Assembly: GCA_963753345.1 (NCBI GenBank) | Contig: CAVWBU010000024.1 | Span: 64,001 to 128,000 of the forward strand | DNA length: 64,000 nucleotides | Source: an uncultured Fibrobacterota bacterium | GTDB taxonomy: Bacteria > Fibrobacterota > Chitinivibrionia > Chitinivibrionales > FEN-1185 | Direction of reading: 5' to 3' | Shown: positions 5,719 to 21,513 of the stretch, piece after piece | Layout of the letters: each line of letters begins with the position of its first letter | Position numbering within the stretch: position 1 is the first letter of the stretch | Notes under the pieces: generated by a model | Seen by the model: only the letters and a program-made list of their open reading frames with translations | Database searches by the model: none | Told to the model about the DNA's origin: nothing | Made by a program: the position numbers and the translations under genes

Positions 5719-7062
5719 CTACAACCCTAATTTCGCAAGCCTCTGCTTGAGCTCGCTCCCCTTCTTTTCGTTGCCGGGCTTTGACAGAAGCGCAAACATG
5801 TTCTTCTTGTACGCTTCGACGCCGGGCTGGTCGAACGGATTGACGCGCAGGAGATAGCCGGACAGCGCGATCGCCTTTTCGAAAAAGTAAAACGCCTGAC
5901 CGAGCGTCTCCTCGGTCCGGTCCGCAAGCGTGATGGTGGCGCAGGGCACGTTTCCGTCAAGGTGGGCCAGCAGGGTCCCGCGATACGCCTCGGCGTTGAC
6001 GTCCTCGAAGTTCTTTCCCGCAAGATAATTGAGCTCGTCGCTGTCGTCGCCGAGTTTGGGCAGCGCCACGGACGTGTTGGTGCGGCCGAGCACGACAAAA
6101 GTCTCGAACACGTTGCGCAGGCCCTCCTGCATCCACTGGCCAAGAGAATGAAGGTCGGTGGTATAGTCCACGGAGGCGGGAAAAATACCGGTGAGGTTCT
6201 TCCCCTCGCTCTCGCCCGCAAGCTGCTTGAACCAGTCGCCCAAGTAATGGAGCTGCGGCGCGAACAGGGCCATCACCTCGGTGGTCCTGCCGCGGCGGAA
6301 CAAAATGTTTCTTGCCGCGGCATAGCGGCCCGCGATGTTTTTGTCAAGCGTCGATGCAGAGCAGAACCCCATGGCCTCCTTGGCGCCCGCAAGCAGCTTT
6401 GAAACATCGAGGCCGGCCATGGCGCAGGGGAAAAGGCCCACCGGGGTGAGCACCGAGAAGCGTCCGCCCACGTCCGAAGGAATGTCGAAGGTGGCGTAGT
6501 GTTCCTCGTTCGCAAGCTTGCGCAGCGCGCCTTTCGCCGGATCGGTGGTGGCCACGATGCGGCCCGCCGCGTCCTTCTTTCCATACCGTTTTTCCATCCA
6601 CTGCTTGATTATGCGGAACGCGATGCCCGGCTCGGTTGTGGTGCCGCTCTTGGATATCACGTTCACCGCAACATTCCTGTCCTTGACAAGTTCGAGAAGG
6701 TCGGTGATGTAATCGGAATTTATCTGATGCCCCGCAAAGATCACCCGGGGCTTGCGCAGGTCTTCAAACGACGGCGACACAAACTCGATTGCCGCCCTTG
6801 CGCCGAGGTACGACCCGCCGATGCCGATGCAGATGAGAACGTCGGTTTTCGGCCTGAGCGCGGCCGTCGTGTCGCGGACCTTCTTGACAACTGCCGCATC
6901 TATGGCCGCAGGCAGGTCGAGCCAGCCGAGAAAATCCCTGCCAGGGCCGTTCTTTTTTTCGAGCATGGTCTGCGCGGCCGCAAAGGAGTCGTTGTAGGCC
7001 GCCCATTCGTTCTCCTTTATCCAGTCGCCGAGGCATTTGTCGTCATAACTAATTTTCTGCAT
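5719..7062 (-). CDS. pgi: Glucose-6-phosphate isomerase
   Basis: [41 protein letters not shown]. Confidence 0.97.
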
Positions 7063-7100
7063 GATTCTATTCCTTTCCTATTTATTAATACCAAAAAGAT

Positions 7101-7519
7101 TGGGCGTTCCCCTCGCTTTCGCTCGGGTCGGTTCTCCTTCCGGTCTCGGCCGTTCGGCCTCGGGCCGCCACGGCCCTATGCCGCGAGTACGCGGCCGGGT
7201 CCGGGCGGCACCCCGCTATGGCGGGACCTCCAGTCGCCCCTAACGCGCGGCAGAGGAATTCTATTAAGTCAACTCCTTCTTCTCGCGCCAATCCAATTGA
7301 CCTCACCCCTATCCCCTCTCCTAATGGAGAGGGGCACGGACATGCTATGGCCCCTTCCAATTTTCGCTCGTGGGTGCCGCCGCAACAATGTATGGTCTTG
7401 CCGCTGCTTTATCAAGGCGGCTACCCAGGAGGGGGTAGCGGAAGACCGGCGCGCGATGGACGATGGGAAATAAATGAAAATAGCGCACCGGGCTGAAGCG
7501 AGGGGGAACCTTCCCCCAC
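7101..7519. repeat. Structured intergenic element, copy 1 (modules B + A)
   Basis: TGGGCGTTCCCC...GGGTCGG...TCCAGTCGCCCCTAACGCGCGGCA...GTGGGTGCC...ACCCAGGAGGGGGTAGCG...AGGGGGA-N4-TCCCCC, shared with other copies. Confidence 0.9.
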
Positions 7520-7544
7520 CAAATATTTATTGGCATATCCTGGT

Positions 7545-8930
7545 TTATAAATAAGTATGAACCGAACTCTTCTCCCGCTCCACAGGTTTCGATATTGTCA
7601 AGACAATCGCCCCGTTCTTGAACAGCGTCACCATGCCGGTGGACTCAGATACGGTGATCGACAGCGCCTTGGTGCAGGCGGTGATGCCCGCTGCAGCCGC
7701 GTGGCGCGAGCCGAACCCGCTCGGCAGCAGCTCCACTTCGGCCTGCGGCCGCAGATAGCTCCCCGCCGACAGCACGATGCCGTCGCCCGTGATGACGAAC
7801 GCGCCGTCGATGCTCGCGAATTCCTTGACCGTTTCGGCGAGCGCCGGGTCGATGATGTTCCGCTCGGCCTCGCTGTAGCCGCGGAACGGATTGATGATGA
7901 GCTGCGTAACGTACTTGTTGACCGTGTTGGTGTCGCCCAGAACGAAGATAGTCCCGAGCGGTTTGCCCTCGCGTCCCTCCACGGCGATCTCGCCCGCGAG
8001 CCCGAGCACGCGTTCGAGAACCTCGGGCATGATGTCGGGCGGCAGCAGCGCCGGCGAATTCGTGAAGAAGAATTCGTATTCGCTCGACACGTCGATCGCC
8101 ACGATGGTGTCGAACTGTCCCGCCTTGGAGTTTCCCGAAATGCAGACCACTTTGTCGCTGTTGTCAATAAGGTTGCGGGACAGGGCGAGCAGCATGCCGA
8201 TCCTCACCTGCCCCGTTCGCGACGCGGGATACGACGGCGCCTGGATGCACGCGGCGATCCTTTTATCGTCGGGGTCGAACCGCGACTTGTTGCTCGTCAC
8301 CACAATCACCTTGCCGCGGTTCTTGAGCACGTCGAGGAAATCGTTGTCGCGGACCGTGTCCGCGAACACCATGAGCGCGGTCGCCTTGATGTCCTTGGCG
8401 AGGTCGACGGCCGCGTTGAGCACGGGCTGCGGGCCCTTCTTCGCGCTTTTCGCCCCCTTGTCCTCGCCCGCGGTTCCGCCCTGCGCCGCTTCGAGTTCCC
8501 CAAAATCAACGGTCGTCGGATCGGTGCGTATCTTCTCCCGCACCAGATCGTTCTTGAAGAACGAGGCGACCTCCGACATGATCTGGAGGTGCTCGGAGCT
8601 GTCGGCCTTCTCGTTGGTGATGACCAGCACCAGAATGTACGCGAGCGCGCCCCGCGCCGCGTCGTACTTGATGCCTGCAGCGCTGCGGCCCACCGCGATG
8701 GCGAAATCGCCCTTGATGTCGGCGCGGAGATGCGGGATGGCGATTCCCTGGCCGATGAACGTCGAAGCGGCCTCTTCGCGCTTGAGGATCTCATCGACGA
8801 ACGCCTTCTGCCGCCGCGAGATCCGGAGCGCCTTGCACAGCTCATGCACCAGCTCGCGAATCGCCTCGACCTTCTCCGTCGACGCGAGATCGACCACTCG
8901 GGGAATCCTGAGGTAATTCTGGAACGACAT
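7545..8930 (-). CDS. PTS EIIA domain fused to DacZ/DisA_N-type diadenylate cyclase
   Basis: N-terminal REE..ST.IG.GIAIPH (EIIA); C-terminal EGREGK, IDGAFV, GSRHAAA, VSESTG (DAC). Confidence 0.88.
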   Translation of the reverse strand: MSFQNYLRIPRVVDLASTEKVEAIRELVHELCKALRISRRQKAFVDEILKREEAASTFIGQGIAIPHLRADIKGDFAIAVGRSAAGIKYDAARGALAYILVLVITNEKADSSEHLQIMSEVASFFKNDLVREKIRTDPTTVDFGELEAAQGGTAGEDKGAKSAKKGPQPVLNAAVDLAKDIKATALMVFADTVRDNDFLDVLKNRGKVIVVTSNKSRFDPDDKRIAACIQAPSYPASRTGQVRIGMLLALSRNLIDNSDKVVCISGNSKAGQFDTIVAIDVSSEYEFFFTNSPALLPPDIMPEVLERVLGLAGEIAVEGREGKPLGTIFVLGDTNTVNKYVTQLIINPFRGYSEAERNIIDPALAETVKEFASIDGAFVITGDGIVLSAGSYLRPQAEVELLPSGFGSRHAAAAGITACTKALSITVSESTGMVTLFKNGAIVLTISKPVEREKSSVHTYL

Positions 8931-8941
8931 ACTGATCCCTC

Positions 8942-10054
8942 CTATTCGGAAACCGCGGACGCGTAGTAGTCTACAATCGGCTGCTTCCTTGTTTTCACCG
9001 CATCGCCCCGCACCGACACGGCCTTGACATACCGCAATTGCTCCAGGCCCTTGGCCACGATCTGCTTCGGCGACAGGGAATCGAGGGTTTTAAGGTTCCG
9101 CTTCTGCGAGCGAAGGCGTGCAAGGACCGGCCCCACCGCCTGCGCCGCGGCCCCCGTGGTCATCGACGGCCGTTCCCTGAGAACGCTTGCCAGCACGTGC
9201 TCGGGAAGCAGCCGGTACAATGACTGCAGCGTGTCGCGCAATTGCGCGCAAACGGCCCGCATGGACGCCTGGTGGCCGGACATCTCGTCGCGGGCCGTCG
9301 CTTTGAAGTTTGCCTTGATGTCAACCATTTCCTTCACGCACAGGGGCGTCCCGAAATCAATGAAGACCTCGCCGCGCTTGATGCCGAGGCGCGTCTCGAG
9401 AATGAATTTCACAAACGCGATGATGTCGGCGCCGAAATAGAACGGTATGCCTACAAGCCTGGAAACAACATTGGACTGTTTCTTCCGCATCTCCTTGCCC
9501 TTGCGGAGCATTTCGAAATACGGCAGCTCGGGGAGGTGCTCATACGAGACCGCGCAGGGGAGCAGCAAAACTTTTTTGTCAGGGTTCCGCGCCTGCGCGA
9601 GGATCGCCGACATGAGGATGCCGCCTTTCATCTCCATGGTGCCGCCGCCGTAGCTCCGCCCGCCCTCCGGAAACACGAGAATCGGCTCGCCGTTCTCCAT
9701 CATGTTCACAACGTCAAGGCACAGCTGCCGCACATAGGATTTGCGGAACGCCATGTCCCTTCGCACGGAAAACGCGCCGAAAGCGCGGAACCGCTTTCCG
9801 AGGAAGGGGAAGCCGGTAAGGTTGTCGCCCGCCGCGATGCGCAGGTAAGGGACGCCGTTGTTATAGAGGAGCCAGCCGAGCAGAAAGTAATCGGTCTGGC
9901 TCCGATGCGTGGCAACGACCATCACCATGGAATCCTTGAGGGACTCCGGCTCATAGCCGTTCCGGTCAATGGTGATCCGCGTGAATGCCCGGCGGAAGAA
10001 CCACTCAAGGCCGTCCGTAATATTGTCAACCGCTTGTTCGTAGGGTTTCTTCAC
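8942..10054 (-). CDS. Glycerolipid acyltransferase (PlsB/PlsC family)
   Basis: HRSQTD, AAGDNL, GAFSVRR, FPEGGRS motifs. Confidence 0.88.
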   Translation of the reverse strand: MKKPYEQAVDNITDGLEWFFRRAFTRITIDRNGYEPESLKDSMVMVVATHRSQTDYFLLGWLLYNNGVPYLRIAAGDNLTGFPFLGKRFRAFGAFSVRRDMAFRKSYVRQLCLDVVNMMENGEPILVFPEGGRSYGGGTMEMKGGILMSAILAQARNPDKKVLLLPCAVSYEHLPELPYFEMLRKGKEMRKKQSNVVSRLVGIPFYFGADIIAFVKFILETRLGIKRGEVFIDFGTPLCVKEMVDIKANFKATARDEMSGHQASMRAVCAQLRDTLQSLYRLLPEHVLASVLRERPSMTTGAAAQAVGPVLARLRSQKRNLKTLDSLSPKQIVAKGLEQLRYVKAVSVRGDAVKTRKQPIVDYYASAVSE

Positions 10055-10114
10055 AGGAGATGGAAAATACCTTGTGAGGGAAAACCTTGCAAAGGCATTC
10101 CGCAGTCGCGGCCG

Positions 10115-11842
10115 TCAACCGGGCCCGTTGCCGGCTAGAGGTACCCTGTATCGCTCCGAATTGACGGACGGCGCGATTTCCCCGTCGTCAAAGCCGAAGG
10201 AAACCGTACACCGCCCGCGGTCCGGCTTTTCAAGGGGAATCACGGCCTCCACCGTTCTTGCCGCGTGCGCGCCGATGCTGTCGCGGGCCGACAGTTCCTG
10301 CGCAAGGACCGTGCTGTCTTTCCCGGCGTCTTCACGATGAAGAACGCAGACCAGCCGCACGGGCTCTCCATAGCTGTCGCGTGCAAAAGTCAACGGTGTG
10401 CCGCGATGGTTGACGATTTCCAGGGACACGCTCTCCCCGTCCTGCGCCGGGAGCCTGCGGCGCATGGTCTTCAGGGTGATCCGGATGTCCAGGTAGGACG
10501 CAAAATGCCTGATCGACACGTAGTTTATCTCTTTGCCCATCCTCGTGACCAATCGCGTGCAATGCCTGTTCCTGCCGTACTTGACAAGCGTGACATCGCG
10601 TCCCTGGATGCCGTCTTCCGCCCCGCGTATCTCGTATTCCGATTTCTTGTTCCCGCCGGGATAGAGCGCGATCCCCTGCATGCCGGAGTAGAACGAATAC
10701 AGCGGAGCCTCGCGGAGCTGGCTCTCAAACACCACGGGGCTTCCGCCCGCGACGCCGCGGATGTCCTGCGCCCACTGCTCTCGGCCGTGGTAGAAATCGA
10801 CGTTGTTGAAGGTGTTGACGGGAAGGATTGGAAAAGCAAGATAGGTCCTCAGAAAAAGGACGAACAAAAGCGGGGGAACAGACAGCCAATACAGAAGCAT
10901 CTTTCTTCTGCTGCCATAGTATGAACAGCCAAGGATGATGAGGGGCATCAGCGCAATCGACGTCCAATGGAATTGCACATAACCCTTAAGGGTCGCAAGG
11001 CAGAAAAACGCCAGCGTGCCGATTGCGATGAATTTGAGCGCCCGCTCAAAAGCGTCCTTGGTTTTATAAATGAATGGAACGAATACAAGGGCCGGGCCGA
11101 GCACAAGGGGCTGCACCCCGAGAAACTCGGTGAGAAAATCGATCCTAAAGCCGCTCGACCGCCCCACCAGATGATACTTGAACGAGACAAAGTCGTGGGT
11201 GTACTGCCACCAGAGGTGAGGGACAAACATGACAAGGGCGATGCCGGCCGCGAGCATGAACTTCCTGTTACGCAACAACGACAGATTAGACAGGACAACG
11301 AAAAGGATAAGAAGAATCGCATGATACTTGGCGTATAGCATCAGCCCGAGCACGAGTCCCATTGAAACGCCCGACGCATAATCATCCTTTTCAAGGAACC
11401 TCTTGTAGCAATAGAGAAATACCGCCGACAGCGCAACCAGCGGCGTATCCGGGAACACAATGAACGTGAGATAATTGAAGAGCGGCAGTGACAGAATTAT
11501 CAGGTACGGATAGAACTTCCTGTTGATTTTATCGCCGAGCAGCTTCAGGAGAAAAAAAAGCCCGATGCAGACGAGCGCCACATTTACAATCCGGACTCCG
11601 AGCTCGCCCGGAAACAGGCGGCATCCCAGAGCGATACACAGCGGGAGAAGAGGAGGATGATCGTAATATCCCCAATCCGCATGGGACGACAAATACCAAT
11701 AGTAACCTTCATCGCTCGTGAGCGTAGTGAGGGAGGCCTGGACGATGTTCAGAAGGAGATACAGGAGAACAAAAAGAAGCGGCAGCGACTGCGGCGGAAT
11801 TGCTTTGAGCGAAAAACCGGCGGGATTTCTTAACAAGCGCAC
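10115..11842 (-). CDS. GT-C glycosyltransferase (ArnT/PMT-like)
   Basis: DEGYYW..S...WGYYDHPPL, PDTPL, AKY; many transmembrane segments. Confidence 0.85.
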   Translation of the reverse strand: MRLLRNPAGFSLKAIPPQSLPLLFVLLYLLLNIVQASLTTLTSDEGYYWYLSSHADWGYYDHPPLLPLCIALGCRLFPGELGVRIVNVALVCIGLFFLLKLLGDKINRKFYPYLIILSLPLFNYLTFIVFPDTPLVALSAVFLYCYKRFLEKDDYASGVSMGLVLGLMLYAKYHAILLILFVVLSNLSLLRNRKFMLAAGIALVMFVPHLWWQYTHDFVSFKYHLVGRSSGFRIDFLTEFLGVQPLVLGPALVFVPFIYKTKDAFERALKFIAIGTLAFFCLATLKGYVQFHWTSIALMPLIILGCSYYGSRRKMLLYWLSVPPLLFVLFLRTYLAFPILPVNTFNNVDFYHGREQWAQDIRGVAGGSPVVFESQLREAPLYSFYSGMQGIALYPGGNKKSEYEIRGAEDGIQGRDVTLVKYGRNRHCTRLVTRMGKEINYVSIRHFASYLDIRITLKTMRRRLPAQDGESVSLEIVNHRGTPLTFARDSYGEPVRLVCVLHREDAGKDSTVLAQELSARDSIGAHAARTVEAVIPLEKPDRGRCTVSFGFDDGEIAPSVNSERYRVPLAGNGPG

Positions 11843-12063
11843 AAAAAAGCCCTCACGTCGTTTCTCTGCAAGTCAATCGAATATAATTCTTCGCCGCCCG
11901 GATTCTTGTAGGGAAACAGGGCGAAGGACCGTGTCGCGGACCGCTCGCGGCTGTTGAGTGGGCGCGGCCCGCGAGCTATATTCTACCCTTCGTTCATTGC
12001 CAGGGGATTTTTTTTCAATCCCGTACCGGTGCTCATCCACCCTTCACCCAAAAGGACCTCTTC

Positions 12064-12576
12064 ATGACGCAAGCATCCTCCCTCACCGCCTCAATCAAGA
12101 CCGAAAAAGGCGCCATCCGTCTCAATCTGTTTGCCGACAAGGCGCCGCTCACGGTCGCCAACTTCGTGAACCTCGCCAGGCGCGGGTTCTACAACAACCT
12201 TAGATTTCACCGCGTGATTGCCGACTTCATGATCCAGGGCGGGTGCCCCAAGGGCAACGGCACCGGCGGGCCCGGGTACAAGTTCCGGGATGAATTTGTC
12301 AAGGACCTGCGCCACGACAGGCCCGGCGTCCTTTCCATGGCCAATTCCGGACCCAACACCAACGGCAGCCAGTTTTTCATCACGCATGTGCCGACGCCCT
12401 GGCTCGACGACCATCACACCGTGTTCGGCGCGGTGACCGGCGAACAGGACATGGCGGTTGTCAACAGCATCAAGTCGGGAGACAGGATCGATGTGATTGA
12501 GATCGAGGGCAACGCGGAGGGGCTGCTCAAAGAGCAGAGGGAGGATGTGGAGAAGTGGAATAAAAAGCTGGGATAA
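12064..12576 (+). CDS. Cyclophilin-type peptidyl-prolyl isomerase
   Basis: [39 protein letters not shown]. Confidence 0.95.
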
Positions 12577-12586
12577 GGAAAAAAAC

Positions 12587-12833
12587 TGGGCGTTCCCCCG
12601 CTTCGCGGGGTCGGTTCTCCTTCCAGCTCGGCTGGTCAGCCTCGTTGCCGGTCCGCCCCTAGTCGCGTTCACGCTTCGCGCCCTCCGGGCCGCCTGCGGC
12701 GGTGGTCTCCGCGCCTTCGGCGCTCCGGCTCGGCGAGGGGTCGGCCGGCAATCCCGCATTGGCGGGACTTCCAGTCGCCCCTAACGCGCGGCAACAGAGC
12801 TCTTTTCCGTCAAGTTTCAATAATTGCGCCATC
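12587..12833. repeat. Structured intergenic element, copy 2 (module B only)
   Basis: First 80 nt identical to 14570-14649; contains CCAGTCGCCCCTAACGCGCGGCA; module A absent. Confidence 0.9.
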
Positions 12834-12941
12834 CGGAATTCTCACCAAATAATTCGGAATCACCCCTTCAACACCATCCGTCAACTGTCAACTATATTGA
12901 CTTCGCTCATTGGTGCCTCTTGTCAAGGCCGCATCAACCGG

Positions 12942-14395
12942 TCATTTCATCAACGAAATCATCTTTTCCTGATGTTCCTCGCCCGCTTTGAAGACGACCA
13001 GATATGCGCCTGCGGCAAGCTTGCCCCGTTGCATGCTCAATGAATAATTCCCGGCATCCTGATGCTTGTTGACAAGTTCGGATTGCAATTGGCCATTGAT
13101 ACTATACAGCCGCAGGGAGACATGCCCGGCTTGGGGAATTGAATAGGCGAACTTAACTAATGCGCATTTGCAACTGCTTACCTGCAAACCGGCATGCTTT
13201 GCGGTTGATGACGCTGAGATGGGTTGGGTCACAAGGGAAGGGGAAGTGCTATCGAACTGGGCGAAATAGGCCTGACCAAAACCCTGGCCTTCGCTGGCGA
13301 ACAACCCTCCGGCATATATCGTTGATCCCTTCACGGCGAGTGAATAGACACCGCCAGGTAAGTTCGGTTTCCAAGCTAAGACAGTCCCTGCTGTCCCATC
13401 CAAGGCTGCCATATCGGAGCGGGTCTGCCCGCCAATGCTGTCAAAGAGCCCCCCGCATATATCGTTGTCCCGCTCACAGCGATTGAATTGACAATGCAAT
13501 AACTGGCGGGATAGTAGAAATGCCGAAATGCATTCGGGTTCCAAGCCAATGCATTCCCTGTTGTCGCATCCAATGCAGCAATATAGTTGCGGTTCTGCCC
13601 GCCAATGTTGGTGAAGCGCCCTCCAGCATACACTGTTGTCCCGTTCACGGCGAGTGATTTGACCCAGTAGTCCGCATTTGGGTTCCAGCTCAATACATTA
13701 CCCGTTGTCGCCTCCAAGGCCGCGATATAGTTGCGGGTCTGCGCGCCAATGGTGTTGAAGGCTCCTCCTACGTATATCGTTGTCCCGCTCACCGCGAGTG
13801 AATAGACACCGTCGCTCGCATCCGGGTTCCATGCCAGGGCATTCCCTGTTGTCGCATCCAATGCTCCTATGTTTTTACGGCTCTGGCCGCCAATGCTGTC
13901 GAACAAGCCTCCTACATATACGGTAGTCCCGCTCACGGCAATAGACAAGACATCGCTTATTAAATTGCCGTTCGCATTCGGGTTCCAGCTCGTTGCATTC
14001 CCTGTTGTCACATCCAGTGCGGCGATATGGTTGCGTCTTTGCCCGTCGATGATGGTGAAATCCCCTCCAGCATATACTGTTGTCCCGCTCACAGTGAGTG
14101 TTTGGACACCGCTGTTTGCATTCGGATTCCAGGCCGTGGGTTCCCCCGTTGTCGCATCCAAGGCTGCGATATTGTTGCGAACCACACTGTGAATGGTGTC
14201 GAAGACCCTGTCGAAGACCCCGCCGATACATGGCCCAACCCGAGTAAAATTCCCTCCAATGTAAACTTTGTCCCCGGCGGGCGCAATCGCAGAGACCGGG
14301 CCATTGGTGACCCATGTGTTCTGGTTGCACGTGTCCGACGGCAAGGCCTGCAGGAGCGCTGCGAGGGAAATGATAATAAGAGCCATCTTTTTCAT
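12942..14395 (-). CDS. Secreted beta-propeller-repeat protein with T9SS-like C-terminal domain; frameshift near 13450
   Basis: Repeats R..IAALDATTG....WNPNA...V.SLAVSGTT.Y.GG.F; AAGGAGG RBS before MKKMAL; frame change at a C6 run joins ORFs 13376-14518 and 12942-13544. Confidence 0.75.
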
Positions 14396-14569
14396 AGCGT
14401 CCTCCTTGCAGATGATTTTAGCAAATCGTCGCTTTCCGCATTTGACCATTCCTTCCCTATTCAATAATATACAGTATATACCTTTTTGTCCACGGCAATA
14501 CAACACCCTGCCGAACAAAGCGGTTTCTGCCAGAAAACACCCCTCGCAGCAATGAAGAAGAAAAGAAAT

Positions 14570-14937
14570 TGGGCGTTCCCCCGCTTCGCGGGGTCGGTTC
14601 TCCTTCCAGCTCGGCTGGTCAGCCTCGTTGCCGGTCCGCCCCTAGTCGCCTTCGGCGAGGGGTCGGCCGGCAATGTGCTCCGGCACACTTCCAGTCGCCC
14701 CTAACGCGCGGCAGAGGAAATTTCTTCAGTCAATTGTTATTTCTTGCGCCAGCCGAAATTTTCAAGGAGCAAATCATTGTTTTCTTCTTGAACTTCTCAA
14801 CTACTCTCCGTGGGTGCCCCCACACCAAGGTATGATTCCACAGCTATCTTTTCTTGGGGGCCACCCAGGAAGGGGTAGCGCAGGACACCGCAGGCCGAAG
14901 GCCGAGGAGGCCGGAGCTAGGGGGATACCTCCCCCGC
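14570..14937. repeat. Structured intergenic element, copy 3 (modules B + A)
   Basis: Same conserved blocks and order as copy 1. Confidence 0.9.
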
Positions 14938-15094
14938 AGAGCAGCTTTTCTCCACTTTCTAATTGAAACTCTTACATTGTCAAAATCCCTCCCCATCCAG
15001 CTTTTGACATTCAATAATGTATATTCCTAAGATTGTAGCATCTGCCTCTTATCTGCAAACATGTCGACGTAAAGGTCCCGGGAAAGGGAACCCC

Positions 15095-16405
15095 ATGAAG
15101 GACATAAACATAGGCCTGGTCGGCGCGGGAGTTGTGGGCGGCGGGGTGGTTAAGATGCTGTCCCAGAAGGCGGCCTATTTCCGCGAAAGCCTGGGTCTTC
15201 CGCTTGTCCTTAAGCGGATCGCAGACAAGGCCGCCAACCGCTTCACGGAGCTGCCGGTGGGCACTGCGGTGTGCACCGAAAATGCCGATGATATCCTGAA
15301 CGACAAAGACATTCAGATTGTGATCGAGCTGGTCGGTGGGACCGCCTTTGCACGGTCTCTCATCACCTCGGCGGTCTCGAAGGGCAAGCACGTGATCACC
15401 GCGAACAAGGCGCTTATCGCGGAATGCGGCCCGGAACTTTTCCAGCTTGCCGAAAAGAACAACGTGTCCATACTCTTCGAAGCCGCGGTGGGCGGCGGCA
15501 TGCCCGTGATAAAGACCATCCGCGAGGCCCTGCTTGCCAACGAGATCACCATGGTGAAGACCATCATCAACGGCACCTGCAATTACATCCTTACGCAGAT
15601 GGCCGACAAGGGCCTTCTGTTCGACACCGCGCTCAAGAAGGCGCAGAAGGCCGGCTTTGCCGAGGCCGACCCGACGCTCGACATCGGCGGCGGCGACAGC
15701 GGCCACAAGGTGGCCATCATGGCCTCGCTCATCCACGGCGGGTATGTTCCCCTTAACAAAGTGTACATCGAGGGCATCACCAATATTTCCAAGGAAGACA
15801 TCACCTTTGCCCAGGACCTGGGATACTGCATAAAACTGCTCGGCATCATCCGGAAGACCCAGGGCGACGACCGCGTTGATGTGCGCGTGCACCCGGCGAT
15901 GCTCCATCGCAAGCACATCCTGGCCTCGGTGGGCGACGTGTTCAACGCGGTCCTCCTCGAGGGAAACGCGGTGGGCGCCACGCTCCTGTACGGCCGCGGC
16001 GCGGGCGAACTGCCCACGGCCTCAGCCGTGGTGAGCGACATCGTGGACGTTGCGAGGAACATCTCGTCCGGCGCGCCGAAGCGCATCCCCATGAGCTACT
16101 ACCGTCTTGACAACGAGATAAAAGTGAAGCCCATCGGCGAAGTGGTGTCCCGGTACTACCTGTGCTTCTGGGTGTCCGACAAGCCGAAAGTCCTGGCGTC
16201 CATAGCGGCCGTGCTCGGCAATTATTCCATCTCGATCGCCTCGGTGCTCCAGAAGGAGTCCACCGAGGAAAGCTGTGTGCCCGTCATCTTTCTCACCCAC
16301 AAGGCGGTGGAGAAGAACATGCGCGACGCGCTCAAGGAAATCGAGACCATGGAGTTCATCAAGAAGCCGACGCACGTGATAAGGATAACGGGGCAGACGT
16401 ATTAG
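15095..16405 (+). CDS. hom: Homoserine dehydrogenase with C-terminal ACT domain
   Basis: G.GVVG, HVITANK, FEAAVGGGMP, NGTCNYIL, GFAEADP, GRGAG. Confidence 0.96.
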   Translation: MKDINIGLVGAGVVGGGVVKMLSQKAAYFRESLGLPLVLKRIADKAANRFTELPVGTAVCTENADDILNDKDIQIVIELVGGTAFARSLITSAVSKGKHVITANKALIAECGPELFQLAEKNNVSILFEAAVGGGMPVIKTIREALLANEITMVKTIINGTCNYILTQMADKGLLFDTALKKAQKAGFAEADPTLDIGGGDSGHKVAIMASLIHGGYVPLNKVYIEGITNISKEDITFAQDLGYCIKLLGIIRKTQGDDRVDVRVHPAMLHRKHILASVGDVFNAVLLEGNAVGATLLYGRGAGELPTASAVVSDIVDVARNISSGAPKRIPMSYYRLDNEIKVKPIGEVVSRYYLCFWVSDKPKVLASIAAVLGNYSISIASVLQKESTEESCVPVIFLTHKAVEKNMRDALKEIETMEFIKKPTHVIRITGQTY

Positions 16406-16413
16406 GATTTTTG

Positions 16414-16508
16414 CGCCTCACCCTTTCCCCCCCACCCCCTCTTCCCCTCTCCACTCGTGGAGAGGGGAAGAGGGGGTGGCCGACAGGCCGGGGAGATGAG
16501 GTGAGGCG
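16414..16508. repeat. REP-like palindrome (CCCCTCTCC/GGAGAGGGG type)
   Basis: Perfect 23-bp inverted repeat 16432-16454/16457-16479 inside outer stem CGCCTCACC/GGTGAGGCG; short relative at 7301-7334. Confidence 0.8.
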
Positions 16509-16549
16509 AACGAAAAAGCAAATTTCACTATTAACCAGAATTTGTCATC

Positions 16550-17896
16550 ATGAATAAACCACATCTTCGTCCCTTCGGCAAAAGCGACAAAACCTACCCC
16601 ATCACCGACATCAGATACCGCAGCGACGACGGCCGCACGCTCGAGGTTGACAATTGCATCGCTCCCATGGACGCAAGAAAAGCGTCCGCGCTGCGCGCAC
16701 TGTTTGACACAAGGCTCATGTCGCGCAAGCCCCTTGACAGAAGCGGCGTATGGCGCTACCGGGAGTTTTTGCCCGCGTTCAAACCGTATGGCGGCGTGGT
16801 TACCATGGAAGAAGGCAACACTACGATTTTCGACATGCCGAAATGCGCGGCGTTCTGCGGCATTGATTCTCTTTTTGCAAAGCACCAGGGGCTCAACCCG
16901 ACCGGCTCGTTCAAGGACAACGGCATGACCACCGCTGTCACCATGGCAAAAAAGCTCGGCGCGACCATGGTGGCGTGCGCGTCAACCGGCAACACCTCGG
17001 CCTCCATGGCCGCGTACGCGGCGCGCGCGGGCATGAAGAGCATCGTCTTTATCCCGGACGGCCAGATCGCGTACGGCAAGCTGTCGCAGTCGCTCGACTA
17101 CGGCGCGCTTACCATCCAGATCGCGGGCGATTTCGACAAGGCAATGGAGATCGTGGAAAGCCTGTGCAACCGCGGAAAAATTTATCTGCTCAATTCGATC
17201 AACCCGTTCCGCATCGAGGGACAGAAGACAATCATGATCGAAATGCTCCACCAGCTTTCGTGGAAAGCGCCGGACTGGGTGATTGTTCCGGGAGGGAACC
17301 TGGGCAACTCCAGTTCGTTCGGGAAGGCGTTTGACGAAATGGTGCGGGCGAAGTTCATCAAGAAGGCCCCGAGGATCGCGGTGATCCAGGCGCAGGGCGC
17401 CAACCCGCTGTACAACAGCTTCGTGTCGGGCGACAGAACGCTGCATCCGGTTCACGCCGACACACGGGCGACCGCCATCAAGATAGGAAATCCTGTAAGC
17501 TTCGACAAGGCGGTGTTCGCGGTGGATTCCACCAAAGGCACGGTGGAACAGGTTGACGAACAGGAAATCGCTGCGGCCAAGTCCTTTATCGGCAGGGACG
17601 GCGTGGGGTCCGAGCCCGCCTCGGCCACCACGGTGGCGGGCTGCAGGAAACTTGTCGGAAAGGGAATTGTCGGGAACTCCGACAGCGTGGTGTGCATCCT
17701 CACCGGCCATCTTCTCAAGGACCCGGACTATACCGTTGAATTCCACAGGGACGAACTGTATCTTGACGCGCAGCGAAACACAACATTGTCCGGCACCAAG
17801 CGTATTTCCACCGGCGGGTTGCATAATAAACCGGTGAAGCTTCCCGCGGATGAGAATGAGATTATAAAGTATATAGATTCGTGGGCGAAGAAATAA
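16550..17896 (+). CDS. thrC: Threonine synthase
   Basis: NPTGSFKD, CASTGNTSAS, NSINPFRIEGQKT, PGGNLGN; follows hom. Confidence 0.95.
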   Translation: MNKPHLRPFGKSDKTYPITDIRYRSDDGRTLEVDNCIAPMDARKASALRALFDTRLMSRKPLDRSGVWRYREFLPAFKPYGGVVTMEEGNTTIFDMPKCAAFCGIDSLFAKHQGLNPTGSFKDNGMTTAVTMAKKLGATMVACASTGNTSASMAAYAARAGMKSIVFIPDGQIAYGKLSQSLDYGALTIQIAGDFDKAMEIVESLCNRGKIYLLNSINPFRIEGQKTIMIEMLHQLSWKAPDWVIVPGGNLGNSSSFGKAFDEMVRAKFIKKAPRIAVIQAQGANPLYNSFVSGDRTLHPVHADTRATAIKIGNPVSFDKAVFAVDSTKGTVEQVDEQEIAAAKSFIGRDGVGSEPASATTVAGCRKLVGKGIVGNSDSVVCILTGHLLKDPDYTVEFHRDELYLDAQRNTTLSGTKRISTGGLHNKPVKLPADENEIIKYIDSWAKK

Positions 17897-17910
17897 TAAT
17901 AGTGTTCTTG

Positions 17911-18394
17911 GTGGGGGAAGTGTCCCCCTAGGGTGCGGCTTCCGTCGCCTCCTTGATAAATGCAAAACCAGAAAATCCGGAGGCGACGGCGATCCGCACC
18001 CATACCCCCTCGTGGGTAGCCCCCAAGAAAGCTGATTTGCAAGAAAGAAACATCGGCTGCGGGGGCACCGAGAAAGAGAGTTGAATAGTTGAGAAGTTGA
18101 GGAGTTGAAGAAGATCAAAACAAATTGGTGATCTTTTCTTCGAGAATTCAAGCTGGCGCAGAAAAAGGACGTGGCTGAATATATTTCATCCTGCCGCGCG
18201 TTAGGCAGGACTGGAAAAATGGTCCCGCTGATGCGGGATGCGCCCTGACCGCGGCCGGAGGGCCTTTGTGGCAGGCAGCCCGAGGCCGAAGGCCGACGAC
18301 CCTTGTGACCCTTGGAAATCCCTGGCGAGGGAGAAGCACCCGAAGGGGTGGACCGGAAGGAGGGCCGACCCGAGCGTGGCGAGGGGAACGCCCA
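17911..18394. repeat. Structured intergenic element, copy 4 (inverted relative to copies 1-3)
   Basis: GTGGGGGAAGTGTCCCCC...TACCCCCTC...CTGCCGCGCGTTAGG...ACTGGA...CCGACCC...GGGGAACGCCCA. Confidence 0.9.
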
Positions 18395-18424
18395 TCTCTA
18401 TTTGAAAAGGAAAAAGGATTAACG

Positions 18425-19616
18425 ATGAAATATATAATATTAGTAGGCGACGGCATGGCCGACTTCCCCATCCCCGAGCTTGACAACCGCACACCGCTCG
18501 AATACGCCAGGACCCCGAACATGGACGCAGTGGCGAAGGCGGGCCGCGTGGGGCTCGTAAAAACCGTTCCCGACGGTGTCCCGCCGGGCAGCGACGTGGC
18601 CAACATGTCGCTTATGGGATACGACCCCGTGAAGTACTATTCCGGCCGCGCACCTATCGAGGCGGCGAGCATGGGAATCGCGCTTGACAAAACCGACGTG
18701 GCGTTCCGCTGCAACCTGGTGACGCTCAAGTGCGGGCTCATGGAAGACTATTCCTCGGGCCACATTGAGACGCCGGACGCACACGAAATAATTGCTGCTT
18801 TACAGAAGGAACTCGGCGCTCCGGCCGTGACATTCCATCCCGGCGTGAGCTACCGTCACCTCACCGTGATTTCTCATTTCCCGGATGGCAAGCTCGACTG
18901 CACGCCGCCGCACGATATTTCCGGAAAGGCCTACGGGGAACACCTTCCCTCGGGGTGCGGCCAGGATATTGTCCGGCGCCTCATGGAGGATGCCCGGCCC
19001 GTGCTTGCCTCCTCGCCCGTCAACAAACGGCGCGAAGCGCAGGGAAAAAAGCCCGCCACCGACATCTGGCTGTGGGGCCAGGGAAAGGCCGTGTGTGCTG
19101 CCCACGATGAAGGAACGGTTCGCGATTTCCGGGTCCGTGGTTTCGGCGGTGGACCTTGTGCGCGGCCTTGGCGTGCTGGCGGGACTCAACGTGCGCATCG
19201 TCCCGGGCGCCACCGGCTACCTCGGCACCAACTACGCCGGCAAGGTCGCGGCCGCCCGCGAGGCCCTTGCGAAAGAGGACTTCGCGTTCGTGCACGTGGA
19301 GGCGCCCGACGAGACCTCGCACGAGGGCGACCGCGAAAAGAAACTGCAGGCCATCGAGGAGTTCGACAAAAACGTCGTGGGCGAGGTGCTCAAATTCCGC
19401 GAAACATTCCCCGATCTCCGGATCATGGTGCTCCCGGACCACGCCACGCCCCTGTCGCTCAAAACCCATCACGCCGCGCCGGTTCCGTTTGCCGTGTGCG
19501 GAAAAGGCGTTGATCCGGACGGCAGTCTTGCGTATTGCGAAAAAGCCGCGGTTGGGAAAAAGATGTATACGGGAGTGACGCTGTTTGAGACGTTTATAAA
19601 AGGCAAATTTGAATAA
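18425..19616 (+). CDS. apgM: Cofactor-independent phosphoglycerate mutase, ApgM type (proposed homoserine kinase family); frameshift near 19091
   Basis: GDGMAD, TPLE.ARTPNMD, PPGSDVAN, HVEAPDE.SH.G, LPDHATP; halves joined across a GTGTGTG run. Confidence 0.88.
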
Positions 19617-19634
19617 TAATAATACAATATTTTT

Positions 19635-20040
19635 GTGGGGGAAGTATCCCCCTCGCTCCGGCCGTCTCCGGCGTCCTCCGCTACCCCCTCCTGGGTGACC
19701 CCCAAGTAGGAGTAGTTGCAAGAATCAAGCACCTGTGTGGGGGCACCCACGGAGAGCAGTGAAATAGTTGAGAAGGCGAGACAGTAGAGAAGCTACAAGA
19801 TAAAACGTTGTTTTACTCCCTGGGGAATCCGGCTGGCGCAAAAAGATTGTTCTTGACAGAATGGATTCCTTCTGCCGCGCGTTAGGGGCGACTGGAGGTC
19901 CCGCCATAGCGGGATGCTGCCTGACCACGGCCCGAAGGGCCCTCGTGGCAGGCGGCCCGAGGCCGAAGGCCGAGACCGGAAGAAGAACCGACCCTTTGTA
20001 GAGCCGCATAGCAGTGCGGCTCTACAAAGGGGAACGCCCA
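19635..20040. repeat. Structured intergenic element, copy 5 (same orientation as copy 4)
   Basis: Same blocks; terminal stem carries GTAGAGCCGCA-N6-TGCGGCTCTAC. Confidence 0.9.
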
Positions 20041-20067
20041 CCTAAATGCATAATTGAAGAATTAATT

Positions 20068-21513
20068 ATGTTTGCACGATTCATCGAAAAAGCCCTCACC
20101 TTCCTCATCGACATCGTCGCCTTCAACGTTGCGTTTGCAACGGCATTCTGGATCCGGTACAAGAGCAATTTCTTTCCCGAAAGCTTCAACGCCGACATCG
20201 AGTTTTCGTCGTATATCCTATTGTCAATTACCGTCGCGGGCTGCTGGGCGGCGCTGTTTTTTGTTACCGGCCTGTACCGCGACTGGTACAAAGAGTCGCG
20301 GCTCGACGAGTTCTTCGTGGTCGTGCGCACCATTCTCATCGGCATCTTTCTCTTGTTTCTCATAACGAGCGCATCGCAGATCATCGATTTCGCGACCAGC
20401 GGCAATTTCGAACAGGTCTTTACAAGAACGAAGTTCGCTGTGCTGATCACCTATGCCGTGTGCCTCGTTTTCTTCACCACCGCAGACCGCTTCATCATGC
20501 ACAGCCTTCTGTCGTTCCTGTTTGTGCGCGGCATCGGCGTGAGCAAGGTGCTCATCATCGGCGCGCAGGAACCCGGCGCGCAGCTGCTCGACGAGCTGAA
20601 GCATTATCCCCAGCTCGGATACCAGGTGAAGGGCTTTGTCGACGACAACGGCAGGCTCACTGGCACGCAATGCGGCGGCCTTCCCGTGCTCGGCACCTAT
20701 TCCGACATTCCCGCTCTTGTCAAGAGAGACCGGGTGACCGGCCTCATCATTTCCCACGTGTCCGGTTCGGCAAACGAAATTCTCAAGATCGTCAACTACT
20801 GCGGCGAGCTCCGGCTCACCATTTCCATGGTGCCGTCGCTTATGGACGTAATCTCGGGACACCTCAAGACCCACCAGATCTTCGGCGTGCCGCTCATGAT
20901 CCTTCTCCAGGACCACATGCCCGCGTGGGAGGCGCAGATCAAGCGCATCACCGACATTGTCGTTTCGCTGCTCGTGTTGGCGCTCGGCGCGCCGGTCTGG
21001 CTGGCCGTTGCCGCGGTGATACGCCTCACCTCACCGGGCCCCGCCATTTACAACCAGGAACGCGTGGGCCAGAACGGCAAGCCCTTCATCATGCACAAGT
21101 TCCGCTCCATGTACCAGGACGCCGAAAAGCGCACCGGTCCCATGTGGGCAAAGGAAAAGGACCCCCGCATCACGCCCATGGGGCGTTTTATCCGGAAGAC
21201 AAGGCTTGACGAAATACCCCAGTTTTTCAACGTGCTGGTGGGCGAAATGAGCCTCGTGGGCCCGCGGCCGGAGCGGGCGTTTTTCATCCAGCAGCTCAAG
21301 CAGGAGATCCCCTGGTACGTCCGCCGCATCAAGATGAAGCCGGGCATCACGGGCTGGGCGCAGGTGAAACACAAGTACGATGCGTCAATCGAGGATGTCA
21401 AGCAGAAAGTGATGTACGACCTGTACTATTTCGAAAACATGTCCCTCATGCTCGACCTCAAAATAATGCTGCACACCATTCTGGTGGTGTTCACGGGCAA
21501 AGGGGCGCATTGA
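20068..21513 (+). CDS. Polyprenyl-phosphate sugar phosphotransferase (WcaJ/WbaP family)
   Basis: KFRSM, DPRIT.MGRFIRKTRLDEIPQ, MSLVGPRPE, KPGITGWAQV. Confidence 0.95.
   Translation: MFARFIEKALTFLIDIVAFNVAFATAFWIRYKSNFFPESFNADIEFSSYILLSITVAGCWAALFFVTGLYRDWYKESRLDEFFVVVRTILIGIFLLFLITSASQIIDFATSGNFEQVFTRTKFAVLITYAVCLVFFTTADRFIMHSLLSFLFVRGIGVSKVLIIGAQEPGAQLLDELKHYPQLGYQVKGFVDDNGRLTGTQCGGLPVLGTYSDIPALVKRDRVTGLIISHVSGSANEILKIVNYCGELRLTISMVPSLMDVISGHLKTHQIFGVPLMILLQDHMPAWEAQIKRITDIVVSLLVLALGAPVWLAVAAVIRLTSPGPAIYNQERVGQNGKPFIMHKFRSMYQDAEKRTGPMWAKEKDPRITPMGRFIRKTRLDEIPQFFNVLVGEMSLVGPRPERAFFIQQLKQEIPWYVRRIKMKPGITGWAQVKHKYDASIEDVKQKVMYDLYYFENMSLMLDLKIMLHTILVVFTGKGAH

Follow-up and report, generated by a model that had tools for sequence, protein, structure and literature searches.

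A lineage-specific family of modular, structure-selected intergenic elements in an uncultured Fibrobacterota genome

The intergenic DNA of an uncultured member of the phylum Fibrobacterota (lineage Chitinivibrionales/Fibrobacterota) carries a lineage-specific family of modular, structure-selected interspersed elements, whose two units, A and B, stand alone or combined in a mosaic reminiscent of BIMEs and BOX elements. In this organism's own MAG (4.5 Mb, 94%-complete), 503 nhmmer matches merge into 486 elements that together occupy 141.6 kb, or 3.1% of the genome, an abundance far above chance. The elements comprise 181 A+B, 187 B-only and 93 A-only copies and 25 fragments, and 480 of the 486 are intergenic, with no overlap of called genes. 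The A-to-B strand is under selection for its single-stranded fold, and every resident copy is itself under selection. It is quite possible, if somewhat short of an even chance, that the units are transcribed and that the RNA works in cis as self-contained punctuation of gene boundaries.

The starting point was a 64 kb stretch of this genome (the window, 64,000 nucleotides), in which an initial annotation had described five copies of a two-module element. A five-copy nhmmer profile returns five matches in the window and no others, at the same places (Table 1), and the conserved blocks described as keeping a fixed order are visible in the alignment of the copies. The copies indeed lack a convincing open reading frame and an adjacent transposase. 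Their description as filling 'housekeeping intergenic regions' was right as to intergenic, but housekeeping is too narrow a label because the family fills intergenic DNA across the genome. Similarly, both modules are real, but they are separable units with different phyletic ranges rather than an obligate pair.

Table 1. Copies of the element and their parts in the 64 kb window.
Feature	Position	Strand	Evidence or detail
Copy 1, full A+B	7092..7529	-	nhmmer profile positions 2-412, E 6.5e-109; CM R1 89.0 bits
Copy 1 parts	module A ~7366-7519; B core 7104-7246	-	
Copy 2, module B only	12578..12954	-	nhmmer profile positions 127-412, E 1.2e-58; CM R1 74.2 bits
Copy 2 parts	B core 12590-12787; conserved upstream box to ~12836	-	
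Copy 3, full A+B	14561..14946	-	nhmmer profile positions 3-412, E 2.7e-109; CM R1 108.5 bits
Copy 3 parts	module A ~14806-14937; B core 14573-14707	-	
Copy 4, full A+B	17903..18404	+	nhmmer profile positions 4-413, E 5e-101; CM R1 50.3 bits
Copy 4 parts	module A 17911 to ~18075; B core 18198-18391	+	
Copy 4 spacer, tandem 8-nt units of AGTTGAGA type, nearly without C	18079..18117	+	sequence
Copy 4 optional mini-hairpin insert (CACCCGAAGGGGTG type) inside B core	18297..18352	+	alignment
Copy 5, full A+B	19626..20048	+	nhmmer profile positions 3-411, E 1.6e-104; CM R1 116.9 bits
Copy 5 parts	module A 19635 to ~19756; B core 19879-20037	+	

Copy 1 lies between a dacZ-like gene and pgi, 38 nt from the pgi start, and its site is also filled in a sister MAG (locus L034). 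Copy 2, in which helix P4 carries a long insertion, is convergent with a PPIase gene, with 10 nt between the element 3' end and the PPIase stop; the same site in the sister MAG holds a full A+B element (L034 553-1014). Copy 3 faces the divergent hom gene. Copy 4 separates thrC from a thrB-like gene, with the thrC stop 14 nt before it and the next ATG 30 nt after it, and the orthologous gap in congeners G003 and G005 is 85-86 nt long and empty. Copy 5 follows the stop of the thrB-like gene by 18 nt and precedes the start of an EPS sugar transferase gene by 27 nt; the corresponding site has an element in G002 and G004, module B alone in G005 and nothing in G003. The gene distances first reported for copies 1, 4 and 5 agree with these values (14-18 nt after the stop for copies 4 and 5, 27-38 nt before the start). 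The co-orientation of module B with the genes, reported alongside them, stands as a tendency but fails as a rule, as copies 2 and 3 demonstrate.

The core of module B is a 135-position domain of 37 base pairs in about eight helices, within a unit of 135-250 nt. P1 closes a junction; within it are a stem that is irregular and rich in purines (P2/P2c/P2b), the three hairpins P3-P5, and P6, a hairpin of hypervariable sequence. Purine-rich junction strands (GACUGGA, CCGGAAGGAG) are conserved. The predicted closing of module B by GCGTT/AACGC was correct, and this pairing becomes GCGCC/GGCGC in 36-38 of 122 copies. In CM alignments, whose fitting to the model inflates the percentage paired, 90.2% of cells are paired in the own-genome cores (n=122) versus 78.1% after shuffling (0 of 500 shuffles reach the observed value), and 89.9% versus 78.1% in 84 cores from other species and metagenomes (78 distinct). 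Double-sided changes affect 28 of the 37 pairs in the first set and 24 in the second, and slid controls of both sets leave 34-49% of cells paired (37-49% for the own-genome cores). Covariation thus gives strong support to a conserved secondary structure of module B, and the earlier idea of a dispersed structure-selected element is borne out by genuine covariation in both core alignments. The compensatory swap noticed in module A, CCCCC/GGGGG versus CCGCC/GGCGG, likewise extends genome-wide (among 207 distinct A modules, 153 have C-G and 49 have G-C at this pair).

The mismatches reveal which strand is selected. Mismatch cells in P1 are U-G in 16 cases versus C-A in one, and across all B pairs there are 111 GU/UG versus 57 AC/CA cells and 138 GA/AG versus 57 CT/TC cells. 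These G-U intermediates and G-A mismatches indicate that it is the A-to-B strand, in single-stranded form, on which selection acts. The chemical nature of that strand is less obvious from the predicted loops, whose types are unusual for a structured RNA: C(GNA)G triloops are the commonest class (169 of 855 predicted hairpin loops), and 405 predicted tetraloops include 59 GNRA and no UNCG. Since C(GNA)G forms a hyperstable mini-hairpin in DNA, folding as single-stranded DNA is possible.

Module B also varies by insertion and exchange. The mini-hairpin insert of about 29 nt seen in copy 4 is found in other copies after P5, inside P4 or before P6, and 74 of the 90 hairpins of this type in the genome are located within or next to elements. 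Variants of P1 are spread over several P3/P4 backgrounds, a pattern suggestive of recombination. Module A is a unit of about 150 nt with three helices. Between A and B lie a C-poor spacer with 8-nt tandem units, a repeat type that recurs 5' of B in many copies, and then a conserved box that is found ahead of the B core in A+B and B-only copies alike. The box holds TTGAC...TAGATTT; among 45 B-only copies, 33 keep TTGAC and 30 keep TGGCGC. Downstream, a T-rich tail begins about 3 nt past the conserved ...CGCCCA end of B, with T in 80% of copies at +3, 43% at +4 and 52-77% across most of the ten positions that follow. The termini of B match imperfectly over 7-8 nt (TTGGCG at the start, CGCCCAA at the end).

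The two modules differ in phyletic range. Module B is confined to one genus, where it is present in four of five other species; its signature is present in just two named genomes, one MAG from the Chitinivibrionales and one from an uncultured member of the Fibrobacterota, and congener G003 is without the family altogether. Among 81 genomes of the order Chitinivibrionales, 29 carry an A-like module in multiple copies, and 17 of its 27 predicted pairs covary across families; these A-like loci of other families have no relevant Rfam match at E<=1. Between the sister species, all 32 mapped sites are filled in both, with module content differing at about a dozen. Same-site copies in the two species (19/27 usable pairs) diverge by 6.1% at columns at least 95% conserved in the family versus 28-32% at variable columns; in 69 flanking genes, the first, second and third codon positions diverge by 4.8%, 3.5% and 18.0%.

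The placement of the elements is consistent with a role at gene boundaries. Where an element end faces a gene 3' end, the stop codon lies a median of 16-21 nt away, and distances to gene starts are 78-120 nt. Between tandem genes, A+B copies favor the sense orientation (60 versus 20 antisense, p 9e-6), as do A-only copies (21 versus 4, p 9e-4); B-only copies have no orientation bias there (22 versus 15, p 0.32). We suggest that the folded domains, standing just past stop codons, might end, insulate or protect the flanking transcripts. Module B could share a transcript with its upstream neighbor or be transcribed from the conserved box that precedes it, with a 3' end at the T-rich tail. Simple scans of the elements, however, bring out no consistent sigma-70 promoter or canonical terminator (counts below). 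Moreover, were B to end in a full terminator, the hom-thrC-thrB operon would be interrupted, as the next start codon is just 27-38 nt away. Copies antisense to both neighbors are as conserved as sense copies (B 97.8% versus 98.5%, A 98.8% versus 99.1%; p 0.41-0.45), so co-transcription with flanking genes is not the whole story. The family may have been amplified by some copy-and-recombine route, with copies now kept by the host. A bolder form of this reading, which we hold to be doubtful, would make module B an undescribed class of large structured RNA with about 370 individually selected copies per genome that, with the older, order-wide module A, forms a genome-wide punctuation system; each self-contained unit would then be able to begin, terminate or insulate transcripts where genes meet, or to load a dedicated protein.

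We consider it rather unlikely that the units are instead non-autonomous mobile DNA (REPIN-, PATE- or MITE-like), with a single-stranded DNA fold recognized by a trans-acting enzyme (for instance a transposase, HUH or other) that the assembly lacks or that goes unrecognized in it. Conservation would then reflect the needs of mobilization and frequent conversion between copies. Selection of structure on one strand only and the prevalence of C(GNA)G triloops would fit such a scheme, as would the differences among congeners, from the empty thrC-thrB site to the family-free G003, and the reassortment of modules and P1 variants. The elements also lack long terminal inverted repeats, and no target-site duplication was seen (longest word common to the flanks 4.31, versus 4.18 in shuffled pairings, for 140 elements), although a 2-bp duplication would escape this comparison. 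In these respects, and in their strand-specific single-strand structure, they resemble IS200/IS605-derived PATEs and IS91 elements, and their folded units bear comparison with omega/reRNA, of which omegaRNA is a structured scaffold some 150 nt long found at one end. The enzymes expected of such systems are another matter. PF01797 (Y1 transposase/RAYT/TnpA), which a control search detected in 6 of 14 reference genomes, is absent from the family's own 94%-complete genome, as is PF07282 (TnpB); no reverse transcriptase was found there, and neither was an autonomous partner. That genome does encode one IS91-family Y2 (HUH) transposase, but nhmmer, even at E<=10, detects no similarity to the modules at the ends of the Y2 element, with six copies and their surroundings covered. 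The Y2 element has no B core as a neighbor, and Y2 is missing from all 17 genomes (0/8, 0/2 and 0/7) of the three genera with the most A-like copies.

Distribution and decay bear on the same question. The orientation of A-only (39 versus 38) and B-only (76 versus 70) copies is independent of GC skew, unlike that of PATE and IS91 elements. The occupancy of all 32 sites in both sisters, and invariant columns that evolve about five times more slowly than variable ones, are unlike decaying dead copies. Contigs of four metagenome runs contain no allele that skips exactly one element, which is weak evidence as contigs break in repeats. The initial annotation had proposed looking in the genome and its relatives for further copies, empty sites and a linked nuclease, reverse transcriptase or HUH gene; the first two were found, the empty sites in G003 and G005, and no linked transposase was. 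Four specific assignments lack support on these grounds: an IS91-family derivative (no end similarity, no co-distribution with Y2), an IS200/IS605 PATE or omegaRNA (no PF01797 or PF07282 in the genome), a DDE-type MITE (no target-site duplication in 140 elements, with the same 2-bp caveat), and REP/REPIN in the strict sense (no PF01797, and multi-helix units of about 150 nt for A and 135-250 nt for B).

We consider it distinctly unlikely that module B represents a small-RNA gene present in many copies, each having a promoter of its own in the box and its own 3' end in the T-rich tail. B would then be an RNP scaffold, a protein sponge or a ribozyme-like RNA, and A a separate, older 3'-UTR element often found upstream of it. 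The retention of the box in B-only copies, the tail and the differing ranges of A and B are consistent with this model, as are the orientation-independent conservation of B, the unbiased B-only copies, and the combination of purine-rich junction strands with covarying helices, which is typical of protein- or ligand-binding RNAs. On the other hand, the box contains no sigma-70 consensus promoter, although that consensus may not be this phylum's. A sigma-70 scan of the elements gave 11 sites versus 5.0 +/- 2.3 expected, which do not recur at any single position of the element, and a canonical terminator scan gave 15 versus 15.4 expected, none at element ends. Some 370 copies of a single small-RNA gene would be unprecedented, and in apparent operons many B units stop 27-38 nt short of a start codon in the same orientation. 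The family resembles Rfam orphan motifs in its unpaired conserved blocks between covarying helices, narrow phyletic range and unassigned function, but its hundreds of copies per genome and mosaic modularity set it apart from single-copy riboswitches and sRNAs.

The chance that the family is the Flavo-1 RNA motif, which module B had been thought to resemble, or another described Rfam family is close to nil: cmscan of the whole window against Rfam 15 gave no match at gathering thresholds and, over 7000-20200 at E<=5, no Flavo-1 match and only two sub-threshold chance matches (MIR2109, snaR-A) touching an element, and the host is not a member of the Bacteroidetes, where, in Flavobacteria, Flavo-1 occurs.

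Close parallels to the family are found among other interspersed repeats. Published work describes REP/BIME units and REPINs as high-copy (>100), strictly extragenic, near gene 3' ends and long-persisting, with single-strand folding and mosaic combination of REP/BIME units (PMC2817692, PMC3116915, PMC8049555). To that extent the present family is alike in copy number, extragenic position near gene 3' ends, single-strand folds, mosaics and persistence, and in the broad sense of high-copy, extragenic, modular folded units it is REP/BIME-like. REP/BIME sequences affect mRNA stability and termination. REPs are palindromes of about 20-40 nt; unlike them, module B is a 135-position multi-helix fold with conserved unpaired junction strands, and the family has no RAYT and no inverted doublets. 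BOX of Streptococcus pneumoniae (modular, boxA-boxB-boxC), ERIC/IRU and Correia elements are also intergenic, in hundreds of copies with stable predicted folds, and are co-transcribed with their neighbors. They are shorter than the present elements, Correia having terminal inverted repeats and a TA duplication; no sequence relationship to them was found, and we know of no covarying fold of about eight helices or per-copy selection described for them.

Bacterial interspersed repeats are usually short palindromes of debated function. In contrast, the family described here makes up 3% of a genome and combines a riboswitch-sized fold with clear covariation, a structured motif so far unrecorded and from a little-studied uncultured phylum. 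Short-read contigs break at every copy of the repeat, and such breakage matters for the binning and annotation of these MAGs. Selection can be measured per copy between sister species, and a family-free congener and empty orthologous sites provide natural controls, so that the long-standing question of parasite or host tool is directly testable. If the bolder form of the punctuation reading is true, this bacterium would have domesticated a structured repeat as a general architecture of gene expression, rather than harboring junk or a simple palindrome.

The five copies of a two-module intergenic element that the initial annotation had placed in the window are confirmed by the sequence itself, by alignment and by a search with a profile built from the five, and the window holds exactly those five and no others. 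The same profile has 503 matches in the whole host genome, a MAG of 4,516,072 bases in 55 contigs (55.9% G+C, rated 94% complete). When colinear matches are merged, 486 elements are obtained, which occupy 141,593 bases, or 3.1% of the genome, and comprise 181 copies with both modules (A+B; median 436 nt, range 322-689), 187 with B only, 93 with A only and 25 fragments. The element is thus a real, very abundant and modular family, and the window is an average-density stretch of it.

Coordinates of the five window copies (from element profile matches) and components of module A in element order
Feature	Window position	Strand	Sequence	Remark
Copy 1	7092-7529	-		5-copy profile match
Copy 2, B only	12578-12954	-		5-copy profile match
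Copy 3	14561-14946	-		5-copy profile match
Copy 4	17903-18404	+		5-copy profile match
Copy 5	19626-20048	+		5-copy profile match
Module A hairpin H1			GGGGGA-N4-TCCCCC	nearly invariant
Module A helix H2				with variable hairpin
Module A block			TACCCCCTCC	between H2 and H3
Module A helix H3			TGGGTG.CCCCC / GGGGG.CACCCA	

Ordinary genes flank the window copies: pgi, a PTS-IIA/diadenylate-cyclase fusion, an acyltransferase, a PMT-family glycosyltransferase, a PPIase, hom, thrC, an apgM-type 'proposed homoserine kinase' and an EPS priming transferase. The apgM-type gene (18425-19616) is read as two overlapping frames, 18425-19513 and 18885-19616, with a 1-nt shift near 19090; both halves lie in a single frame in four congeners, and the split is due to a misassembly or to a recent frameshift. 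Between hom and thrC, at 16416-16506, there is a near-perfect palindrome of about 24 bp, GC- and pyrimidine-rich, which scores below threshold in Rfam as miRNA-like hairpins; the hom-thrC gaps of four congeners carry sequences unrelated to it.

In element orientation, module A is preceded by an A-rich run and then a T-rich run. Among 207 distinct copies, the inner pair of its helix H3 is C-G 153 times and G-C 49 times. The spacer from A to B is nearly C-free and contains tandem 8-nt units of the AGTTGAGA type, and the B core is directly preceded by a conserved box (GAATTCCGATTGGCGCGAGAAAAAGTAATTGACTGAATAGATTTCCTCT) in A+B and B-only copies alike. The core starts with GCGTT and ends with AACGC. 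Helix P1 closes a junction that holds an irregular stem (P2, P2c, P2b), hairpins P3, P4 and P5, and a hypervariable hairpin P6; the stem has purine-rich internal loops, with GACUGGA opposite CCGGAAGGAG. Module B finishes with CGCCCA, followed by a T-rich tract. A mini-hairpin of about 29 nt (CACCCGAAGGGGTG type) interrupts the B core at varying places and, in one case, H1 of a congener; 74 of the 90 such mini-hairpins in the genome lie within or beside elements, 61 in element orientation and 13 opposite to it. Some B ends in the host genome (e.g. C49:33145 and C16:241302) have an inverted piece of module A (…GCGGTGCCCCCACCA…) directly downstream, and at some sites two B units stand head to head (C47:26193-26693), so that the mosaics include inverted junctions.

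We described the B core with a covariance model of 135 positions and 37 pairs, because P2, P4 and P6 fall out of register between subfamilies in MAFFT alignments. Searched against the window and 20 other genome stretches, 460 kb in all, the model found 122 full-length cores. Standard pairs fill 90.2% of their pair cells, compared with 78.1% in shuffles (reached by 0 of 500) and 37-49% when the partner is slid by 1-3 columns, figures that come from alignments fitted to the model and from copies that form subfamilies, so that the cells are non-independent events. Both sides change in 28 of the 37 pairs, with a covariation score of 0.285 (shuffles, 0.113; slid controls, 0.068 or less). P1 switches between U-A (72-77 copies) and C-G (36-38), P2c between U-A (69) and C-G (43), and P2b between G-C (107) and A-U (11), while P3, P4 and P6 each show several pair types. 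Another 84 cores, 78 of them distinct, come from a sister MAG, from three congeners and from a few contigs of metagenomes, and behave in the same way, with 89.9% paired vs 78.1% in shuffles, 24 of 37 pairs changing on both sides and a score of 0.260 vs 0.100. Several different P3/P4 backgrounds carry P1 in its C-G form, which requires repeated compensation or recombination between subfamilies.

The intermediates of these changes are not strand-symmetric. P1 has 16 U-G cells and one C-A cell in the host's own cores, and 18 U-G cells in the cores from other species. Over all B-core pairs there are 111 GU/UG cells vs 57 AC/CA, 21 of the latter from one doubtful pair, and purine-purine G-A/A-G mismatches outnumber C-T/T-C mismatches by 138 to 57. 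The excess of U-G and of G-A indicates that selection acts on the A-to-B strand in single-stranded form; the element has a multi-helix single-strand fold of defined polarity with strong covariation. Minimum-energy folds of 200 distinct B cores contain 855 predicted hairpin loops, of which 285 are triloops, 169 of them C(GNA)G; among the predicted tetraloops, GNRA accounts for 59 of 405 and UNCG for none. The C(GNA)G loop closes hyperstable DNA mini-hairpins, and the same loops also occur in RNA.

Placement was analyzed against 3062 genes called by a crude codon-usage caller, whose 76% coverage means that some genes are missed. Of 486 elements, 480 do not overlap any called gene by more than 60 nt. 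Whichever end of the element faces the 3' end of a gene lies a median of 16-21 nt from the stop codon, and ends that face gene starts lie 78-120 nt away; the element is confined to intergenic DNA beside gene ends. Where a gene lies within 250 nt on each side of the element, copies between tandem genes are biased to the sense orientation when they contain module A (A+B, 60 sense vs 20 antisense, p 9e-6; A only, 21 vs 4, p 9e-4), and B-only copies are at 22 vs 15 (p 0.32). There is no bias with respect to GC skew, or replication strand, for A-only (39 vs 38) or B-only copies (76 vs 70); A+B copies stand at 86 vs 47, and the genes themselves are 57% concordant with skew. No RNA runs covering window positions 16500-21500 are listed. 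In four public metagenome DNA runs, contigs matching window positions 6500-21500 break at the elements, with joints that link different copies, and no clean empty-site allele is seen in these broken contigs. Summed depth over the elements in the same runs (windows 7001-7501, 14516-15016, 18023-18523 and 19526-20026) is 10-50x that of flanking genes. Contigs end at element borders, and the repeats fragment short-read assemblies of this lineage.

The sister MAG, a close relative of the host, allows copies to be compared at the same site. Across 69 flanking genes, codon positions 1, 2 and 3 are 95.2%, 96.5% and 82.0% identical. Its fetched contigs carry 57 element regions. For 32 of them the interval between mapped flanks could be located in the host genome, and an element occupies all 32 there too. 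Content differs at about 12 of these sites (A vs B, full vs one module, inverted B pairs, or an insertion of 1.3-1.8 kb). Same-site copies were aligned pairwise, an hmmalign-based comparison having overstated divergence, and 19 of 27 pairs were usable. In family columns that are at least 95% conserved, 6.1% of aligned sites differ (101/1654); the figure rises to 15.5% in columns of 90-95% conservation, 18.4% at 80-90%, 28.4% at 60-80% and 32.3% below 60%, and is 27.1% at non-consensus insert positions. The invariant blocks of each resident copy are therefore held about as tightly as codon positions 1 and 2. In the minimum-energy folds of 16 orthologous cores, 36 double changes at paired positions preserve pairing and 19 disrupt it; of the single changes, 31 preserve it and 74 disrupt it. 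Selection acts on each element copy, with helices drifting while the invariant blocks are held.

Full elements occur in four of the five other species of the genus (40 relatives searched), and the element is absent from G003, a congener rated 99% complete. The thrC-thrB gap is empty (85-86 nt) in G003 and in a second congener, G005, and holds A+B in the host, G004 and G002; at the thrB-eps gap, three species carry A+B, G005 carries B only, and G003 is empty (99 nt). Compared by eye rather than by formal alignment, the intergenic DNA of the empty gaps has no evident similarity between the two species or to the filled sites, so that no target site can be read from it. In G002, the thrC-thrB element (stretch L056, ~10150-11510) contains an IS5/IS1182-like IS directly after H1, with a CTAG duplication and inverted ends of the CAGGGTGTTGAAA type; the CTAG within ...CCCCCTAGGGTG... 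may turn the elements into targets for IS.

Beyond the genus the two modules part company. The B signature TGCCGCGCGTTAGG-N2-5-GACTGGA, scanned in one genome per prokaryote species, matched 34 stretches, 33 in one Chitinivibrionales MAG and one in an uncultured Fibrobacterota MAG, and matched no viral contigs. Matches to a degenerate B pattern in metagenomes are mostly chance: among the 80 loci listed, 17 have a real B core. Multi-copy elements with the H1 hairpin, the H2 stem round a hairpin that varies freely, and the block CCGCTACCCCCTC also occur elsewhere in the order, in other families and even in genomes that are AT-rich; one such A-like copy, used as the query of a BLAST-type search, matched 29 of 81 genomes of the order, and both sides change in 17 of 27 predicted pairs across families. 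An order-wide A and a genus-confined B indicate that A is old and B a genus-level addition. In two AT-rich relatives from another family, G030 and G025 (L184-L188, L191), tandem 6-nt NTCAAA units precede the A-like element, unlike the AGTTGAGA-type units of the host genome, which come after module A; these short tandem units seem to belong to the A/B system.

The element matches no described RNA family. Module B had been likened to the Flavo-1 motif of Bacteroidetes, an identity that we reject, as we do any other Rfam family: Rfam 15 gives no match in the window at gathering thresholds and no Flavo-1 match at E<=5 over 7000-20200, where two chance-level matches alone touch an element, and the host is, from the B-signature matches, a member of the Fibrobacterota, not a Bacteroidete. 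A-like loci from other families have nothing relevant in Rfam, and literature searches on repeats of Chitinivibrionia and on intergenic repetitive elements of Fibrobacterota found no such element.

Invariant columns are as intact in copies antisense to both neighbours as in sense copies (B, 97.8% vs 98.5%; A, 98.8% vs 99.1%; p 0.41-0.45), so the constraint is independent of the direction of flanking transcription. This orientation-independent conservation, with the loop types, keeps two other explanations alive. One, which we consider rather unlikely, is that the element is a non-autonomous mobile element recognised as ssDNA by a putative enzyme. No target-site duplication is detectable at the elements, and searches of the host genome (94% complete) for a Y1 transposase, TnpB or reverse transcriptase gave none. 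The genome has a single IS91-family Y2 transposase gene (G000:C26:285763-286341; L178 3724-5157; Zn_Tnp_IS91 + Y2_Tnp, 477 aa), adjoined by a DDE transposase (L178 1728-3275) similar to that of the IS in G002, and a single IS110-family transposase gene (G000:C16:260558-260989); neither has a B core next to it. The length of the IS91-like element is about 2.1 kb. Within the genus, its Y2 protein tracks our element loosely, being present in the host, in six full copies in G002, in pieces in G004 and as a fragment in G005, and absent from G001 and G003. The ends of the IS91-like element have no profile similarity to the modules at E<=10, and nhmmer puts the short words that they share with the element (GTGGGGGAAG near one, CCTAACGC/GTTAGGCGCGG near the other) at chance level. 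Of 81 genomes across the order, 36 have Y2, yet it is in 0/8, 0/2 and 0/7 of those in the three genera richest in A-like copies. Given the lack of end similarity and adjacency and this absence, we reject Y2 as a partner despite its promising within-genus distribution. IS110, single-copy and without an adjoining element, is likewise rejected, as is a paralogous gene of about 25 copies next to some elements, which is a GH2 glycosidase; that family (L017 2519-5410 and some 25 paralogous places) is spread over many contigs at ~65-75% nucleotide identity. The other explanation, that module B is a multi-copy small-RNA gene with its own putative promoter, appears to us less probable still, and a scan of the elements for sigma-70 promoter and terminator consensus gave nothing consistent.

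We tentatively favour a role at the RNA level, because module A shows a sense bias, the elements sit just after stop codons, their unpaired purine strands are conserved, they have a T-rich tail, and copies have been kept across a divergence of 18% at third codon positions. As self-contained units at gene boundaries, the elements would terminate transcripts, insulate them or protect them.
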